This document shows, in pieces, positions 1 to 24,598 of a DNA stretch of 64,000 bases. The stretch lies in the NCBI RefSeq assembly GCF_054482595.1, contig NZ_CM137008.1; one strand, 5' to 3'. The notes below the pieces were generated by a model. That model saw only the letters and a program-made list of their open reading frames with translations. It made no database searches and was not told the DNA's origin. The stretch's first letter is position 1. The number at the start of each line of letters is the position of its first letter. Position numbers and translations under genes: made by a program.

Positions 1-9
1 CAGTTCTCA

Positions 10-210
10 ATGGCGAATAGAATTGGCGCAAGAAATCTTTTTATGTCCAGCTCAGAGTCTAACCCCCTTGATATGACCTATGCCGGAATCAGTAATACAA
101 GTGCTCCAGGATTTACCATTGGACAACTTAGTATTATGCCAATGTTAGGTATGACCCTTCCTGGGGAAAATGGCTGGCCATACGGCGATCAAATACTCCA
201 TAATGATTAG
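10..210 (+). CDS. Possible 3' portion of an unknown b-region CDS that may start before the window
   Basis: ORF of 66 aa beginning 9 nt from window edge; no recognisable motif. Confidence 0.2.
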   Translation: MANRIGARNLFMSSSESNPLDMTYAGISNTSAPGFTIGQLSIMPMLGMTLPGENGWPYGDQILHND

Positions 211-372
211 AAGGTTAAGTATTTTATATTGGATATATGGCTATTGTGCTGCCATGATTCTAACAAATTATGCTTAAGAGGTGGTGCAACTCCTCTCATA
301 CAAAAAATACGTAAAATCAGTAACGGCTGGAAATAATTCAATACATACACTCTCGAAAGTGCATCAGCCAAC

Positions 373-403
373 CGCAGCACGTCTTGCATACGGCGTGTCT
401 GCG
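373..403. terminator. Imperfect inverted repeat (hairpin) upstream of the 419-aa orphan gene
   Basis: ccgcagcacg ... cgtgtctgcgg read in sequence; related to the hairpin at 1957..1990. Confidence 0.4.
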
Positions 404-617
404 GCTCTACCATATCTCCTATGAGCAACGTGTTAGCAGAGCCAAGCCACAACTCTAATTTTAATACATAATGAATGATAATAATATTAAAAATTTTCTG
501 TGTAACTAATTTACTATATGGTTTCTGATAAGAATCATTGCAAAGATTAAACAACTTGTATTACATTGACAGTTAAGCAGTTAATTTTATCACCTCTAAA
601 ATATATCAGCATCTAGC

Positions 618-1877
618 ATGCAACCTATCAAAATGGAGATTTTTATGACTAAAAAACCATGGGAAAGAAGACTTAAAGATTTATCGCACTTGCTCAAATG
701 CTGCATTGATACATATTTTGACCCTGAATTATTCCGCTTGAATTTGAATCAATTCCTCCAAACTGCAAGAACAGTAACATTTATTATTCAAAAAAACAAA
801 AACCAGATTATAGGATATGACATTTGGTATAACAATAATGTTATTGAAAAATGGAAAAATGATCCATTAATGGCTTGGGCTAAAAATTCTCGCAATACGA
901 TAGAAAAACAAGGCGATTTAGAAATGTATAGCGAGGCAAAGGCTACTCTTATTTCATCTTACATTGAAGAAAATGACATTGAGTTTATTACAAATGAAAG
1001 TATGTTAAACATTGGTATAAAAAAGTTAGTCAGACTTGCACAAAAGAAATTACCTTCATATTTAACTGAATCATCTATTATTAAATCAGAAAGACGATGG
1101 GTCGCTAATACGCTAAAAGATTACGAATTATTGCATGCCTTAGCTATAATCTATGGCAGAATGTATAACTGCTGTAACTCTCTTGGCATACAAATAAACA
1201 ATCCAATGGGTGACGATGTGATTTCGCCAACATCATTCGACTCTTTATTTGATGAAGCCAGGAGAATAACTTATTTAAAATTAAAAGATTACTCCATAAG
1301 CAAATTGTCATTTAGCATGATACAATATGATAATAAAATAATTCCTGAAGATATTAAAGAGCGTCTAAAACTGGTAGATAAGCCTAAAAATATCACTTCG
1401 ACAGAAGAGTTAGTTGACTATACAGCCAAGCTTGCAGAAACGACTTTTTTAAAGGACGGTTATCACATTCAAACATTAATTTTTTATGATAAACAATTCC
1501 ATCCAATTGATTTAATCAATACAACATTTGAAGATCAAGCAGATAAATATATTTTTTGGCGTTATGCAGCTGACAGAGCCAAAATAATAAATGCCTATGG
1601 CTTCATTTGGATATCAGAGCTATGGCTCAGAAAAGCAAGCATCAACTCCAATAAACCAATACATACAATGCCAATTATAGATGAAAGACTTCAGGTAATT
1701 GGAATTGATTCAAATAATAATCAAAAATGTATTTCATGGAAAATAGTTAGAGAAAACAAAGAAAAAAAACCGACTTTAGAAATATCAACAGCAGACTCAA
1801 AACATGACGGAAAACCATATTTCATGCGTTCAGTCTTAAAAGCAATTGGCGGTGATGTAAACACTATGAACAATTGA
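618..1877 (+). CDS. Hypothetical protein, 419 aa, AT-rich b-region cargo (moron); no recognisable domain
   Basis: Long uninterrupted ORF with ATG start; markedly AT-rich codon usage unlike neighbouring tail genes; convergent with tfa. Confidence 0.7.
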   Translation: MQPIKMEIFMTKKPWERRLKDLSHLLKCCIDTYFDPELFRLNLNQFLQTARTVTFIIQKNKNQIIGYDIWYNNNVIEKWKNDPLMAWAKNSRNTIEKQGDLEMYSEAKATLISSYIEENDIEFITNESMLNIGIKKLVRLAQKKLPSYLTESSIIKSERRWVANTLKDYELLHALAIIYGRMYNCCNSLGIQINNPMGDDVISPTSFDSLFDEARRITYLKLKDYSISKLSFSMIQYDNKIIPEDIKERLKLVDKPKNITSTEELVDYTAKLAETTFLKDGYHIQTLIFYDKQFHPIDLINTTFEDQADKYIFWRYAADRAKIINAYGFIWISELWLRKASINSNKPIHTMPIIDERLQVIGIDSNNNQKCISWKIVRENKEKKPTLEISTADSKHDGKPYFMRSVLKAIGGDVNTMNN

Positions 1878-1956
1878 GTCATAGAACTTCCATTATTCTC
1901 CTGAAGATAATAATCGCCAAATAAACCAATACTCAGCTTTACAATATACTAACTAA

Positions 1957-1990
1957 CCGCAGAACGTTATTTCATACAACGTTTCTGCGG
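1957..1990. terminator. Hairpin between convergent 419-aa gene and tfa (likely bidirectional terminator)
   Basis: ccgcagaacgtt ... aacgtttctgcgg inverted repeat in the 128-bp intergenic gap. Confidence 0.5.
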
Positions 1991-2005
1991 CATATCACAA
2001 AACTA

Positions 2006-2590
2006 TTATTCCATAACAGGGATTGCAGGCCACTCAATATCAGGTGCTACTGATGTATCAACTCGGTTCAGCAATACCCGATATGTCTTCCATGCCGCCA
2101 GTAACAATATCTCCTCCTCCGTCGCAATATCCAAATCTACCGCATCCTGAAGCGGCGCAATATGCTCACTGGCTACCCGCATGAGGCTGTTTTTTGTTTC
2201 TTCCGCCTCCCGTATACGAAACTGTTTTTCTGCTTCTGCATCTTTCACCCAGGTTGTGCCGTTCCACTTCTGATATTCCCCATCCGGCGACAACCAGGTG
2301 ACATTTTCCGGTAATGAGCCGAGTTCAGAAATAAATAACGCGTCCCCTGATGCCACGTCATAAACTGTTTTACCCCGATGGTCTTCAACAAGATGCCACG
2401 ATGCCTCATCACTGTTGAAAACAGCCACGAAGCCAGCCGGAATATCTGGCGGTGCAATATCGGTACTGTTTGCTGGCAGACCTGTATGAGGCGGAATGTA
2501 TGCGTCACCTTCACCAATAAATTCATTAGTTCCGGCCAGCAGATTATAAATTGTTATGGTCCGTGGTTGTTCACTCATTCTGAATGCCAT
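2006..2590 (-). CDS. tfa: Tail fibre assembly protein Tfa (194 aa)
   Basis: 194-aa ORF directly downstream of stf with 1-nt overlap; length and sequence match remembered lambda orf-194. Confidence 0.85.
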
Positions 2591-5500
2591 TATGCAAGCC
2601 TCACAATATAGTTAAATGCGATGTTTTTGACGGTGTTTTCCGCGTTACCAGCAGCGTTAACGGTGATGGTGTGTCCGTGTGAGCCAATCGCAACGGAGTG
2701 CGTATGAGCACCAATACCGACAGTATGCGCGTGTGCACCTGCACTTGCAGCAGTACCTGACACCGGGTGGGTATGCGCTCCGGCTGACGATGTGCCAGTA
2801 CTCGAGCCTGCACGAGACGCACCTTTGAGGGCTTTATCGCCCTGCTCGGTATTGCCAGATGGGTAACAGGCAACCGTGTGTGTATGTGCCCCTGCAGAAG
2901 CAGCCGTACCACTGACACTATGGGTGTGCGCTCCGGTGTTATTCGTGGATTTAGTGCCGTAATCAAACGACGATGTGGTTTTCGTCCCCAAATCCGTACT
3001 GGATGCACTGGCACTGTGGGTATGCGATTTAATGCCGTCCTGTTCCTGAGATAATACGGCACGACCACTGGCGGGCTTGCCCTTAATCGTCCAGCCACGC
3101 ATATCAGGGATCACGCCTGACGGATAAGCGGCTGCAAGTTTCGGGTAGGCAGATTTGTCAAAAGTCTGCCCCTGCATCAGGGCATAGCCAGACGGAACGG
3201 TATCTGATGGCCACGGGATTGGTGCACCGACTGGATAAAACTCTGCAGGAGGATGAGCCGAGGTGTAAAGCTGCGCCCACGGCGACCAGTTTGCGTCGGT
3301 CGTATCCCGTCGTGAACGAATAAATGCCGGAGCATGAGCACCGCTTGTACCACCCCAGCCGATGAGTAACTCACCTTCGCCAACGGCTGTCATCCCTTTC
3401 AGGTGAATGATATTTCCATACGCTGTTGGATATCCGTTGTTATACACCTCGTATAACTCAAGACCTGTTGCCCCCTGCGTATTGTCTGTCAGCGCGGTTA
3501 CCCGACCTTTTGAAGCCAGATTAACTGATGATACTGCTGTTCCACCTGACGGTAACGCCCCGATCTCTGATGCCGTTGGCTTATTTCTGGAGTTATAGTC
3601 CCTTCGCCAGCCAGGTGAATAATATGTTCCGTGATTAATATAGGTAAACTGGGCGTTAGTTGTTCCACCACCAGTGGAGGTGGTCGGTGTGGTAATGCGG
3701 ATCGTCATCGCTGACTTTATCCCCATTACTTCAATGACAGCTCCGGCGAGATGAATATTACCGCAGTCAGTATCAGTAATGATTTTATTATTGCCATAAG
3801 ACCAGGAACCCTTGCACATCCAGTATGGATGGTTAAATGCTCCCTGAGAATCCAGCCACTCGATAAACTGTGCAGTCGTCCAGTTTCCTGTTGTTGTGCT
3901 TACTGACCCACCGAAGGCACGGCAGGCACCAATATTTTTCGTAAAGGTATCTTTGCCAGGGATATCCGCACCGTTCTGATCTTTCTGCAGACGTTTCTCA
4001 GCATTGTCATTGGCTGCTTTTACTGCCTTTGGCGTTGCCGCCAGCGTTTCAGACGTGCTGTTGGTCGCGCTGCTTAACTGGATTATCCCTTTCTGTGCTG
4101 TCGTTGCATCCTGTGCGGTGTATTTCCCGTTAGCCAGGTCATACGCGGCCTTAACGGCTTTTGGCGTTGCCGCCTGTGACTCGGAAGTGCTGTTGGTCGC
4201 ACTGCTGAGCTGTACTATCCCCTTTTTCGTCGTGCTCGCATCCTCAAGCGCCACGGCGGATGCAATATCCTCTGCACGTTTTGCCGCTGTCTCAGCGCGC
4301 GTTGCTGCAGATTCCGCCGTACTTTTGCTCTGAGCTGCTGCCGTCGCACTACCAGCTGCCTCTGTCGCCTTCGTGGATGCCGTCGTGGCGCTACCCTTCG
4401 CTGCTGACGCCTGTCTGGTCGCCTCATCTTTTGAAGCAGACGCCGATGATGCCGATGACGCTGCCGAACTGGCTGACGATGCGGCAGCCGTTTTTGAGGA
4501 TTCTGCACGGGTTTCCGACGCTTTCGCGTTCGTTTCGGATGTCTTCGCTGCGGAAGCTGACCTCGCTGCTGCGCTGGCCTGTACAGCGGCTTCGCCAGCA
4601 TTCGTTGTGGCTGTTGAAGCAGACGATGCAGCACTTTCTGCCGACTTTCCGGCAGCGGTGGCACTGGCTGAGGCCTGCCCGGCACTTGTTGACGCGGCAC
4701 TGGCAGATGATGCAGCCGCTGTTTTTGAGCCTGCCGCAGCTGAGGCACTCTGTCCCGCTGCCGTTTCAGAAGACCTGGCGTTCGTCTCGGACGTCTTTGC
4801 CGCCTTCGCGGAATTTCCTGCCGCCGTTGCCGAGGAAGCGGCACTACTGGCGCTTGATGATGCGTTCGTTTCTGATGATTTCGCTGCCTCTTTTGAGGCC
4901 GCCGCATCCCGGGCTGAGGTGGCAGCTTCTGACGCCTTTGTGGTCGCGGCGGATGCAGAAGTGGCTGCAGATTTTTGTGACGCTGCCGCATTCGTTTCTG
5001 ACGTTTTCGCCGCACCGGCACTGGTAGCTGCCGCGCTTTTTGAGGACTCTGCAGCAGCAGCACTTTTCGATGCTTCACTGGCCTTTGTTGATGCCGTTCC
5101 TGCGCTGGAAGTCGCTGACTGAGCCGACGAAGCGGCCTGTCCGGCTGACGTGCTGGCTGCACGTGCTGAATCTGCAGCATCAGTCGCATGGGTTGCCGCC
5201 TCACGGGCAGATGTGCTGGCATCACTGGCTGACTTCTTCGCGGCTGCCGTGTTCTGTGCCACCACGGACGCGTTACGCGCCACCTCTTCCACCATCAGTT
5301 CAAAACGTCGCAATGCCTCCGGACGGGCATCATCCTCCGTCATCGCACCGAGAAAATCATTCAGCGTACCGGGTTGGGAATCTTCATACACGGTGATGGT
5401 CCCGGCATGTGACGGCGGGAATCCTTCCACCAACAGAATAACGCTGTACTGACCGTACTCAACGTCCATGCTGTAACGCCCGGCTTCATCCGGATTTTCT

Positions 5501-5625
5501 GAGGCCAGCGTGTTCACCACCACCGTGGTGCTGTTACGTTTTGCTTTCAGCTGGATTGTGCAGTTCTGAACCGGTTTTCCTGTGCCGTCTTTCAGTACAC
5601 CTGAAATCTTTACTGCCATATTCAC
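2590..5625 (-). CDS. stf: Side tail fibre protein Stf (1011 aa) with long Ala/Ser/Thr-rich repeat region and C-terminal His-x-His repeats
   Basis: Position after lom; low-complexity A/S/T repeat block and repeated GAHTHxV motifs near C-terminus typical of lambda/T4 gp37-type fibres. Confidence 0.85.
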
Positions 5626-5683
5626 CCCACAAAAAAGCCCGCCTGAACCGGCGGGCTGTCATAACACTGTGTTACCTGGCTAA

Positions 5684-6283
5684 TCAGAATTTATAACCGA
5701 CACCCACGATGAAACCGTCAGTGCGCCAGTCGCCACTGCCGGAACCTTCATAAGCGACATCAATGGCCACCGATTCGGTCGGGTTAAACTGCACGCCAGC
5801 TCCCCACGCCAGAGACGTGTTGCTGTGGCGACCGTCATCACTTCCGGTCAGCACATCGTGCGTTTTCCCCTTGCTGTCGGTCACCTGCAGATAATCCCCG
5901 GAGAAGGTCGAAACACGGCTGTAAGCCACCCCCGCCATCGCATACGCGCTGAACCATTCATTCACGCGCACAGACGGCCCCGCCATCACGCTGAACCAGC
6001 GGTTACGCACGGAATCTTCATGCCAGCGGGTATCGCTGTAATGCGTTTTTTGTTCATCTTCTGCGTCGGCATAACTGAAAGACGTAATCAGCCCCAGCGT
6101 GTCCGTAAATTCATAACGGTATTTCACGTTAATCCCGTTCAGATTATCGCTGCCGGGTGCGTTCGTACGGGCATGAAGATACCCTGCGCTCAGTGTGGAC
6201 TGATGTTCAGACGCCCATGCAGGCGCACCGGATACGGCCAGACAGATGGCTGCGGAAAAAATGGCTGCACAAACTTTACGCAT
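5684..6283 (-). CDS. lom: Outer membrane protein Lom (Ail/Lom family)
   Basis: 199-aa ORF with signal peptide, beta-barrel-like sequence, position between J and stf as in lambda. Confidence 0.85.
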   Translation of the reverse strand: MRKVCAAIFSAAICLAVSGAPAWASEHQSTLSAGYLHARTNAPGSDNLNGINVKYRYEFTDTLGLITSFSYADAEDEQKTHYSDTRWHEDSVRNRWFSVMAGPSVRVNEWFSAYAMAGVAYSRVSTFSGDYLQVTDSKGKTHDVLTGSDDGRHSNTSLAWGAGVQFNPTESVAIDVAYEGSGSGDWRTDGFIVGVGYKF

Positions 6284-6352
6284 AATTACCTCTCGCTTTT
6301 CTGCAATAAAAAAGGCGCCATTTCTGGCGCCCGTATTGGGGTTATAAAAATT

Positions 6353-9300
6353 TCAACTGATACTGATACCGGATGCGGCTTTTTTCGTTACCGAGACCAT
6401 TAAATCACTGATCCATGTTCTGGGCTCTCCACTGCCGCTCGACTGAACTTCAAATGTTAATATTACATCTCCGTCCCCCACTGGCATATCAATGATATTG
6501 CTGTACACGACTGTTGTCCTTTTCGAACCACTAGTGGATTTGTCATAGATTACATTGCCATTTTTGCGCACAATTAATCTGCAGGTATCGTAGATATTAG
6601 CGCCATCATTTCTACTAAAATATGGTGGCGCACCGTACATGATTGGTTGAATTATAATCTGCCTGTCAAAGGCATGATCGTCCTTAATATGAACGGTAAG
6701 TGAACCCTGTGGGTATTCTCCGGGGTGCGGAAATCGATGCCCTGTCGTTTTTACAAAATCACCACGCACCTGGTTAGCATCAAGCATCCCCTTAATAGTA
6801 CAGCTCTCATTAATCGTGACGTTGTTGAGCGTCCCGGCGTTCGCATTCACACTGCCACTGATATCCGCATTTTTAGCAGTCAGCTTTCCGTCAGGTGTCA
6901 GGGAGAATGCCGGAGGATTGCCACCACTGGTAATCGTGGGAGCAATAAGGAACTTGATCAGCGCCTCATTAATAAACGTCTGTCCGCCCTGTGTGACCAG
7001 TGCAGGAGTGGTGTTACCATTCGCCGGGTTAATAAATGCCACCCGGTCTGCAGCCAGCAGCACCTGACTCTGCATGCCGTCGGGGGTGTTCTCAATACCG
7101 GCACCGATACCCGCAATATAAAGGCGTCCGTCCTGCATCTGCTGCAGCTTCACTGCCCACATGCTGTTCAGGTTATTATTTGTATCAACCTGAACCTTCT
7201 GTATCTGCTGGATCGCTGCACTCTGGTCTTCCAGTTTCTTATTGACGGTCTGTGTTATTTCATTGCTGACATCCGTTATGGACGTCCTGATTTCAGTCAG
7301 GTCAGGCGCAAGCTGACCGTTATCAATCTGCGTCCACAGCTCCTGAGCCAGATGGGTTTTCCCTATCTCTCCTTTGAAAAAATCCAGATAGCCGGACGCA
7401 TCATCACTCGGCTGACCAACAGCCTCCACAAATGCCGATTTGCCAACGGTGTTCACACTGCGGATATAAAAATAATAATCATGGCCCGGTTTGATATTGA
7501 TACTGGCAGCTATCCAGTACAGCGCCGTGCCAAGATAGCGGGCTGTGGTTTCAACCTGCCTGATATCCGCAATCCGCTTTTCCGAGAACCAGAATTCAAA
7601 CTGTACCGTCGGGTCATAAACGGCAAGATGCGGCGTGGCGGTTATCTGAAAATAGCCCGGCGTCAGCTCAATCCGCGACGGCGCTGCCGGTGCGGCAATC
7701 CGGAACGATACCGATGCCGGATCGCCCTGCTGCCCCCAGGCATTTGCCGCCCGGACTGTCAGCCTGTAATTTCCCAGCGCCAGTTGCCTGAAGCGGTATG
7801 TGGTTTCCGTCGTCCGGGCCGTGCTGACCAGCCGTTCACTGCCATCATCCGCAGCCACGGTCAGGCGAAGCAGGAAGTTCACGCCCTTCACCACCTTCGG
7901 CGTGTCCCAGCGCGCCAGCACCTGATATTCCCCGCTGTCTGCGGTGACTTCGGCGGTCAGGTGCTGCACCGCTGGCGGCGTGACACCATTCACCGTGCCG
8001 CTCTGGTCACCGTCAAAGTGCGCCCCGTTATCCACGATGGCCTCTTTTGCCGGTACATGCTGCACGGCGGTGATGGCATACGTGCCGTCGTCGTTCTCAC
8101 GGATACTCACACAGCGGAACAGGCGCTGGCGCAGCGTCGGCAGCTTCAGCCCCCACACGCTGTACTCGGCAACGCCGTCAGGAACCCGGCTCACTTTCAC
8201 CTTCACGCCGTCGGTGACGGACTGGACCTCCACGCTGACCGGATTCCCCTGTCCGTCAACCAGGCTTATCAGCGTGGTGCCGGAAGATGGCAGCGTGATT
8301 TCACGGTCGAGCGTCAGTGTCCGGGTCTGGCTGTTCACCGCCAGCACACGCCCGCCGATGCTGATCCCCGCATAGTCATCATCGCAGATTTCAATGACAT
8401 CGCCCGGTACATGGCGAAGCCCTTCTGCGCCCACGCTGAAATCCACGGTCTGCGTTTCCAGCAGCTCCGTTTTAATCAGCCACAGCCCGGCTCGGTGTGC
8501 CTGCCCCCGGCTGGTACAGCCAAAGGCGTCCATCTTCGTGACATTACGACCGTAACGGAGAATGGCCTGCGTATCTTCAACAAGCTCTGTCGCCGTCTCC
8601 CAGCCGTTATTCGGGTCAATCCAGTTCACCTCAACGGCATTATGGCGGTCCTTCAGGGCGCTGAAGCTGTAGCGGAACGGCGCGCCATCATCCGGCATCA
8701 CCACATTACTGCGGTTATAGGTCCACACCTTATCCGACGGTCGGTCCTGCACGAACGTCAGCGTCTGCCCGTTCCATACCGGCATACAGCGCATCGCCGA
8801 GCAGAAATCACTGAGAACATCCCACGCCTTACGCTGTGTGGTCAGGTAGGCATTACAGGTGATGCGCGGCTCCGTGCCACCAAAGCCATCCGGCACCGAC
8901 TGGTCGCAATTCTGGCCGATGACATACAGCGCCCATTTGTCCACATCCGCCGCACCGAGACGCTTCCCCATGCCGTAGCGCGGATGGGTCAGCATATCCC
9001 ACAGACACCAGGCCATGTTATTGCTGTATGCTGGCTTAAACGTTCCGTCCCAGATACCGCTGTATTGTCGCGTCTGCGGGTTATAGTTCGACGGCACCTG
9101 CAGAATGCGCCCGCGAAGATGATAATTACGACTCACCTGCTGGCTGCCGAACTGCTCCGAGTCCACCTGTACGCCAACCAGTGCCGTGTTCGGGTAGCAC
9201 TGTTTCACATCGATGATTTCGGTGTATGACGACCAGAGCGTTTTGTTCTGCAACTGGTCTGTGGTGCTGTCCGGTGTCATCCTGCGCATCCGGATATTGA

Positions 9301-20917: not shown

Positions 20918-24598
<3,681 letters not shown>

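Follow-up and report, generated by a model that had tools for sequence, protein, structure and literature searches.

We have analysed a window of 64,000 nucleotides (nt) of DNA (contig NZ_CM137008.1 of assembly GCF_054482595.1), identical (100%) to the chromosome of Escherichia coli EC5502, and in particular an AT-rich gene that lies beside the tail fibre genes of a lambdoid prophage, together with the two hairpins that bracket it. By alignment, the gene is a near-identical copy of the already known gene ea47 of bacteriophage lambda, located at the end of the prophage that adjoins torT, and both borders of the unit that carries it fall within copies of an att-like hairpin. The features of the locus, in window positions, are as follows.

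309..404, plus strand: conserved 96-nt element, consisting of ~62 nt of conserved sequence and hairpin 1, with weaker homology to lambda extending leftward to 278
372..404, plus strand: hairpin 1, CCGCAGCACG TCTTGCATACGG CGTGTCTGCGG, left junction of the cassette
394..2003, plus strand: ea47 cassette (exchange unit), starting in the right arm of hairpin 1 and ending shortly after hairpin 2, delimited by steps in identity against lambda
566..593, plus strand: promoter-like sequence TTGACA-16 nt-TATCAC, ~50 nt before the start codon, read from the sequence
645..1877, plus strand: ea47 coding sequence, Ea47 family (PF26900, PHROG 19262), 410 amino acids (aa)
1915..1990, plus strand: second, degenerate copy of the element with hairpin 2 at its right end, recognised by residual similarity to the left flank of the element
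1957..1990, plus strand: hairpin 2, CCGCAGAACGTT ATTTCATAC AACGTTTCTGCGG, right junction of the cassette
2006..2590, minus strand: tfa, tail fibre assembly, 194 aa, a backbone gene, from the list of open reading frames (ORFs), the annotation of the NCBI Prokaryotic Genome Annotation Pipeline (PGAP) and that of lambda

The ORF list contains a plus-strand ORF at 618..1877, which an earlier interpretation made from the letters alone, here termed the sequence-only reading, had described as a 419-aa orphan gene between two hairpins. ORF and hairpins are real but their limits required correction, the hairpins ending at 372-404 and 1957-1990 and the gene starting at the ATG at 645. ea47 is assigned 410 rather than 419 aa because PHROG 19262 aligns only to residues 10-419 of the longer ORF (expectation value (E) 8.6e-292, over the whole 410-position profile), the same ATG is the start in both the PGAP annotation and the lambda record, and a GGAG sequence is located 6 nt upstream of it. 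The gene is also not an orphan. The Ea47 polypeptides of the window and of lambda are identical at 406 of 410 residues, the four substitutions being I315T, N334Y, K372E and G389E, and the window protein shares a 90% cluster with the UniProt entry EA47_LAMBD. At the DNA level, homology to lambda starts at window position 278, with nothing further left, and 278-2095 is 97.4% identical to lambda 22468-24289, ea47 itself being located at 22686-23918 in lambda. The gene has been part of the lambda sequence since 1982. The description of an AT-rich ORF on the strand opposite the tail genes was confirmed, as ea47 is convergent with tfa and the guanine plus cytosine (G+C) content is 0.28-0.33 across 451-1950 compared with 0.46-0.63 in tfa and the side tail fibre gene stf at 1951-5250.

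The Ea47 family is large, comprising 456 clusters when grouped at 90% identity and, at E <= 0.001, 902 representative clusters, which span Proteobacteria and Actinobacteria. Relatives are observed in Vibrio, Shewanella, Pectobacterium, Aeromonas and Methylobacter and, by fold, in Actinobacteria, and full-length homologues of ~410 aa occur in hundreds of clusters, down to 28% identity and with ~35 invariant residues. Precomputed labels assign PF26900 (Phage_lambda_Ea47) to all 120 listed homologues and to genes in their loci, and newer NCBI annotations use the name 'Ea47 family protein'. A local Pfam-A scan did not return PF26900, the library copy presumably predating the family. Separately, the exact lambda Ea47 sequence is filed under Streptococcus, Enterococcus, Xanthomonas, Paenibacillus and other unrelated taxa; these records almost certainly reflect lambda DNA present in public assemblies as a contaminant or spike-in.

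Exchange of the ea47 cassette

Comparison of the window with lambda by sliding identity revealed abrupt steps on both sides of the gene. Within the cassette, identity is 99.2% over ~1600 nt, with 13 substitutions and one 3-nt indel. Outside the cassette it is 80-84% at the left (301-400) and 76-94% at the right, where the tfa gene of the window, unlike the cassette, is an allele different from that of lambda. ea47 is carried by 120 of 5426 complete E. coli genomes and is at least 98.9% identical in all 120, while its upstream neighbour varies, at least four being observed: ea31/ea59 in lambda, two unknown ORFs in the window, a dinI-like gene in GF153 and a lipase gene in SH19PTE6. Thus, the expectation that a comparison across related prophages would find the hairpin-bounded segment exchanged as a unit was borne out.

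Empty sites, in which a single hairpin occupies the position of the cassette, are present in E. coli ATCC 8739, in viral contig L081 and in HK97. In ATCC 8739 and L081, one hairpin links a left flank corresponding to window 309-371 to a tfa end corresponding to 1991-2040. In HK97, the order is tfa, element, sib, att and int, with no b-region genes. The hairpin is located no more than 100 nt from the end of tfa in 94 of the 116 copies examined, drawn from viral contigs and other fetched loci, and in the remaining copies the slot is filled by other cargo. Among this cargo are invertases of the pin type accompanied by alternative fibre tips, genes resembling those for ferritin and catalase, an unknown protein of 201 aa, and a restriction-modification set (EcoRII-like restriction enzyme, Dcm-like methylase and GIY-YIG protein) that likewise lies between two hairpins. 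The restriction-modification unit lies on the reverse strand of L087 (IMG/VR 2731957841_000006) at 2620-6853, adjoining tfa, and is a second cargo unit bracketed like ea47.

From these alignments, the ea47 unit is read as a self-contained, AT-rich cargo of ~1.6 kilobases (kb) located between tfa and the rest of the b region, and one that moves as a block between phage backbones. Compared with lambda, the window has the same gene of the same length at the same position, adjoining tfa on the opposite strand and flanked by hairpins; it differs by the four residue changes, by the replacement of ea31/ea59 with two unknown ORFs and by other alleles of the element and of tfa. The proposal of an independently acquired, moron-type cargo in the tail-fibre-distal b region is upheld by the identity steps, the empty sites and the other cargo found in the slot. 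The moron concept originates from the comparison of the lambdoid phages HK97 and HK022, and the classical definition includes a terminator belonging to the moron itself. The ea47 unit resembles morons in being an extra gene of deviant composition between backbone genes, absent from close relatives such as HK97 and provided with a promoter-like site, but differs in that the bracketing hairpins lack T tracts and are part of a shared att-like element. The site homologous to 566-593 is annotated as a promoter in HK629. A scan with a strict promoter consensus did not include this site, and the number of hits in the scan was that obtained with shuffled sequences.

The hairpin element

That two related imperfect inverted repeats flank the gene, as the sequence-only reading had noticed, is supported by folding energies of -20.6 kcal/mol (z -3.4) for hairpin 1 and -15.5 kcal/mol (z -5.4) for hairpin 2 in comparison with dinucleotide shuffles. 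Exactly two instances of the common pattern CCGCAGNACG-N10-18-CGTNTCTGCGG exist in the 64-kb window, and 100 shuffles gave none. Hairpin 1 forms the right end of the conserved 96-nt element, the core of which was delimited by alignment of 61 variants. By itself, this element is present in ~1000 E. coli genomes and in 196 phage records, and it is located at the tail-fibre end of hundreds of lambdoid phages, in many of them after the stop codon of a dinI-like cargo gene. The element is also 86% identical to the spacer between ykgJ and ecpE in E. coli K-12 (E 1e-24 to 1e-46, blastn). In HK633, a 91.6% match over query positions 3-84 lies beneath a feature annotated as 'attP; similar to non-coding region between genes ykgJ and yagV', located between an IntS-type integrase and the tail fibre gene.

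The only conserved structure predicted by RNAalifold is the hairpin, the 62 upstream bases being conserved yet unstructured. The stem is preserved by double changes, with C:G or A:T at position 7, CCGCCG/CGGCGG in HK633 and CCGCGGTAC/GTACCGCTG in K-12, and the 7-nt loop TGCATAC is kept in 83 of 108 viral-contig copies. In 51 of these 108 copies, a T run (TTTTTCTT...) follows the hairpin 3' on the cargo strand, giving it the shape of an intrinsic terminator. In the window, a terminator scan of positions 1-2600 returned none, and the tails after the hairpins, CTCTACC and CATATCA, contain no T tract. The hairpins are absent from 12 loci of Ea47 homologues in other genera, which assigns them to the lambdoid backbone rather than to ea47. 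The claim that the hairpins provide the gene with a promoter and terminator of its own was consequently not sustained by the tails, the empty scan or the widespread occurrence of an element annotated as attP in HK633. On alignment, the hairpins are copies of a 33-nt inverted repeat that ends a 96-nt att-like element and are not signals private to ea47, and the element may additionally act as a terminator.

The element in the window also corresponds to a site described in other E. coli prophages. Nakamura et al. (2021; PMC8112680) reported a 96-bp site, attB-in-PP_2, at the effector-gene end of lambda-like prophages and traced its origin to the DNA between ykgJ and ecpE (yagV), the homologous flanks measuring 184 and 29 bp. 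In the K-12 spacer, the sequences that flank the 96-nt core measure 182 and 34 nt. Length, origin and flank sizes, as opposed to the sequence of attB-in-PP_2 itself, indicate that this site and the window element are very probably one and the same. With HK633 attP and attB-in-PP_2, hairpin 1 and the 62 bases before it share membership of one sequence family and a location at the cargo end of lambda-like prophages beside the tail fibre genes, where exchangeable effector loci sit. They differ from HK633 attP in that no integrase adjoins the window element, which is not the att site of the window prophage itself.

In K-12, the ykgJ-ecpE spacer (304183-304494; locus L146, 4184-4496) contains not only the element but also, upstream of it, homology to prophage dinI-like genes at their 3' end (...EWF...). 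In K-12, the chromosomal 'attB' may hence be an old prophage-end scar and not, as PMC8112680 had proposed, the source of the phage sequence.

Several other identities of the element were considered and rejected. A small RNA was discarded as Rfam gave no match and RNAalifold only the hairpin. A small ORF annotated over the element in HK629 was discarded as the window has ATA in place of ATG and other alleles contain in-frame stop codons. Integron attC sites, repetitive extragenic palindromic (REP) sequences and IS200-type hairpins were rejected on sequence and context. Integron cassettes do resemble the ea47 unit, being promoter-poor single genes located between imperfect inverted repeats in arrays, and one Ea47 homologue is found in a Vibrio array of the DUF645 type; however, the window hairpin is 33 nt long, lacks RYYYAAC/GTTRRRY cores and is not associated with IntI, and the hairpin pair does not accompany homologues elsewhere.

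Junctions and route of acquisition

In hairpin 1, the left junction is a switch in identity to lambda at 393/394, where the loop gives way to the right arm. In hairpin 2, the right junction, defined by alignment with the empty site of L081, separates the loop from the right arm. From this arm rightward the DNA is identical to L081 and unlike lambda, while the left part of hairpin 2 (left arm and loop) is identical to lambda, as is the right arm of hairpin 1. Both junctions thus fall at the same point of the hairpin because the identities to L081 and to lambda split there. Read in this way, the right arm of hairpin 2 and the DNA rightward of it are resident backbone, and its left arm and loop, together with the right arm of hairpin 1, are cassette. 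Two further observations concern the same region. Homology of HK633 and of many Shiga toxin phages to the common element stops at query position 84-89, and in 9 of 108 copies the hairpin is a hybrid, stem position 7 being mismatched (C:T or C:A). Recombination within an att core would leave junctions, homology ends and hybrid stems of this kind.

These traces are consistent with the ea47 unit having been installed or exchanged through recombination inside the core of the att-like hairpin. The most likely route would be either a site-specific integration event in a resident prophage, after which the rest of the incoming element was lost, or a crossover between two copies of the 96-nt element; the 'prophage-in-prophage' cases (PMC8112680) provide a model for integration followed by deletion. 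Taken as a whole, an explanation in which a lambda ea47 cargo unit has junctions in an att-like hairpin, with the proposed defence role of its protein included, is one in which we have good confidence. Three considerations weigh against its site-specific part. No integrase belonging to the cassette was found. The hairpin pair is not a fresh duplication because the two copies differ, hairpins 1 and 2 being 82% identical over 22 nt. General homologous recombination in the conserved element, a serious alternative, could yield the same junctions.

This alternative can be stated more fully. The hairpins would be transcription signals only, as intrinsic terminators, and homologous recombination, either ordinary or relaxed (Red-beta or Rad52-like), would shuffle the cassette with no site-specific step. 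The T runs in 51 of 108 copies, the double changes that keep the stem in several alleles, as expected of an RNA stem, and the position of the element after dinI-like stop codons all agree with a terminator, and in the stf-tfa region relaxed homologous recombination is known to make mosaics of lambda and prophages (PMC3945230). A terminator, however, requires neither the conserved TGCATAC loop nor the 62 conserved but unstructured nt, T tracts are missing from both window copies, HK633 annotates the element as attP, and both junctions fall at one point of a 33-nt hairpin. We regard this alternative as possible but rather unlikely; it and the site-specific route are not mutually exclusive and are compatible with each other.

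Several neighbouring genes complete the description of the locus. At the left edge of the window, 1..210 on the plus strand is the 3' end of an upstream cargo ORF of 345 aa (PGAP coding sequence at 5173-6210 of locus L004), which replaces ea31/ea59 of lambda. Together with an ORF of 200 aa (L004 4227-4829), it stands in for these genes between ea47 and the torT end of the prophage. Searches of Pfam, PHROG and PADLOC gave no significant match for either ORF, the 200-aa product having a weak N-terminal ZorB/MotB-like match (E 0.002). Both are unknown cargo, in a slot occupied elsewhere by defence genes. To the right, Rfam family IS009 (RF02111) matches window 2049-2247 on the minus strand with 180.7 bits (gathering score 117; E 1.2e-44), wholly inside tfa; the family is probably built on a conserved tfa segment and not on a separate RNA gene. 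The side tail fibre ORF (2590-5625, minus strand) encodes 1011 aa from the first GTG, or 972 aa in the PGAP annotation, with a long, repetitive, Ala/Ser-rich middle and a 3' end that has diverged sharply from lambda stf, identity being 38-60% at 2700-3000.

Possible function of Ea47

In other hosts, Ea47 homologues are always solitary and always AT-richer than their flanks. They are located between gpV and gpS of a P2-like prophage, in the nin region of a Cronobacter lambdoid prophage, in a Vibrio parahaemolyticus prophage next to its integrase, with a serine integrase on one side and tail genes on the other, in integrase islands, beside insertion sequence elements (one in Methylobacter), as a lone chromosomal insertion in Aeromonas and, in Vibrio misgurnus (L132 7001-8233), within an array of small same-strand cassettes with DUF645 genes that has the look of a chromosomal integron. 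The homologue of the P2-like prophage (L138 8001-9260) lies on the opposite strand between the baseplate spike and tail-completion genes and has 37% G+C compared with 65% in the flanks.

Defence genes are frequent among the neighbours of these homologues. Matches to PADLOC defence models were obtained for 9 of 10 neighbour proteins tested, from a sample of ~14 contexts that does not constitute a statistical test of enrichment; the matched proteins correspond to Lamassu LmuA/LmuB, AbiLi/AbiLii, AbiTii, a GajB-like helicase, PDC-S15, PDC-S31 and PDC-S39. In lambda itself, Ea59 matches the Septu ATPase PtuA (E 5e-184) and also PDC-M01A (ea59 and ea31 at L001 817-3281), and the HNH protein Ea31 matches PDC-M01B (E 6e-113). 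Because of these two matches, the b region of lambda is read as encoding a Septu-like pair, Ea59/Ea31. No paper containing both 'Septu' and 'ea59' was found in the literature searched.

The AlphaFold model of Ea47 is confident, with a mean predicted local distance difference test score (pLDDT) of 89 and a predicted template modelling score (pTM) of 0.87. Residues 1-90 are modelled as a helical bundle, which appears weakly HEPN-like, and are followed by an alpha/beta region; structure comparison returned no structural neighbour for the C-terminal domain. Across 120 diverse members, a near-invariant motif W78-x4-R83-N84-x-I-[E/V]-K88-x-G90-D91 is observed, position 88 being K in 116 members and H in 4. 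The segment R83-N84-x-I-[E/V]-K88 resembles the HEPN motif RNxxxH yet differs from it and does not conform to the catalytic Rx4-6H pattern, so that HEPN is a lead only. No HEPN profile matched, a Pfam search at E 10 gave only a chance match to vRNAP_dom, and the family profile against all Protein Data Bank (PDB) sequences gave nothing at E 10. Long relatives of Ea47 bear SEC-C and TPR modules, fusions that are suggestive but not diagnostic of function.

Our best guess is that Ea47 is a stand-alone anti-phage protein acting in exclusion or abortive infection, a proposal to which we assign an even chance. The conserved N-terminal helical domain, with W-x4-R-N-x-I-[E/V]-K-x-G-D, would be the effector and the C-terminal alpha/beta domain the sensor. 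Ea47 resembles single-protein abortive-infection (Abi) and HEPN defence proteins of the AbiD/F, AbiV and RloC types in being a stand-alone protein of ~400 aa with a helical N-terminal and a second domain, encoded in defence islands and prophage slots, but differs from them in matching none of their profiles and in having a non-canonical HEPN motif. The proposal is weakened by the results of database and literature searches. No model in PADLOC, NCBIfam or the local Pfam-A matches Ea47, and among PADLOC 2.0 defence models no family was returned up to E 1. The homology found has not led to a characterised protein: Ea47 has a name but no known function, and in the literature searched no experimental function was found. 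In addition, Ea47 was named as a protein produced early after infection, presumably from the pL transcript, which would fit a lytic-cycle role as well as defence of the lysogen. A broader proposal is more tentative. In it, Ea47 would found a family of single-gene defence proteins with an RN-x3-K N-terminal effector and a C-terminal domain of new fold, and the b region of lambda, with Ea47 and Ea59/Ea31, would be a small defence island built by integrations at the att-like hairpin beside the tail-fibre genes.

The main competing interpretation is that Ea47 serves lytic growth as an early accessory factor in host takeover or counter-defence, in the manner of Gam, Ral or Kil, and does not defend the lysogen. 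In lambda, ea47 lies on the strand transcribed from pL, and with no T tract after hairpin 1 read-through from upstream would be possible. Yeast two-hybrid analysis gave hits of Ea47 to lambda N and U (PMC3224144), and the gene is non-essential in a CRISPR interference screen of lambda (PMC10695390), as is usual for accessory genes; ea47 has also been used as a neutral insertion site (PMC11980383). However, homologues are found outside phages, in the lone Aeromonas insertion, beside insertion sequences in Methylobacter, in the Vibrio array and in defence-rich integrase islands, a distribution typical of defence rather than counter-defence genes, and the cassette has its own promoter-like site. 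On balance, a lytic role is doubtful. Less probable still is that Ea47 is an HEPN-type RNase toxin, in which the N-terminal bundle would cleave RNA once the C-terminal domain senses infection; the weak likeness of the bundle and motif to HEPN points in this direction, and the departure from the catalytic motif does not. Finally, the idea that the ORF at 645..1877 is spurious or the remnant of a decaying gene, for which the odd base composition alone speaks, is refuted because the family is conserved, with hundreds of full-length clusters, ~35 invariant residues and a confident structure model.

lambda ea47 itself and the hairpin element as an annotated att site are already known. What is worth keeping from the present analysis is a testable defence hypothesis and the location of both cassette junctions within an att-like hairpin of lambdoid prophages. 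Ea47 is among the last lambda proteins without a function, and it belongs to a large family (~900 clusters). The defence hypothesis is directly testable with reagents that every phage laboratory has, because the family is solitary, foreign in composition and located beside Lamassu, AbiL, AbiTii, Gabija-like and Septu-like genes. With both junctions inside a hairpin that doubles as an att site, namely HK633 attP and probably attB-in-PP_2, a concrete route is suggested by which lambdoid prophages may build up cargo at their tail-fibre end, where type III effector genes also gather in pathogenic E. coli.

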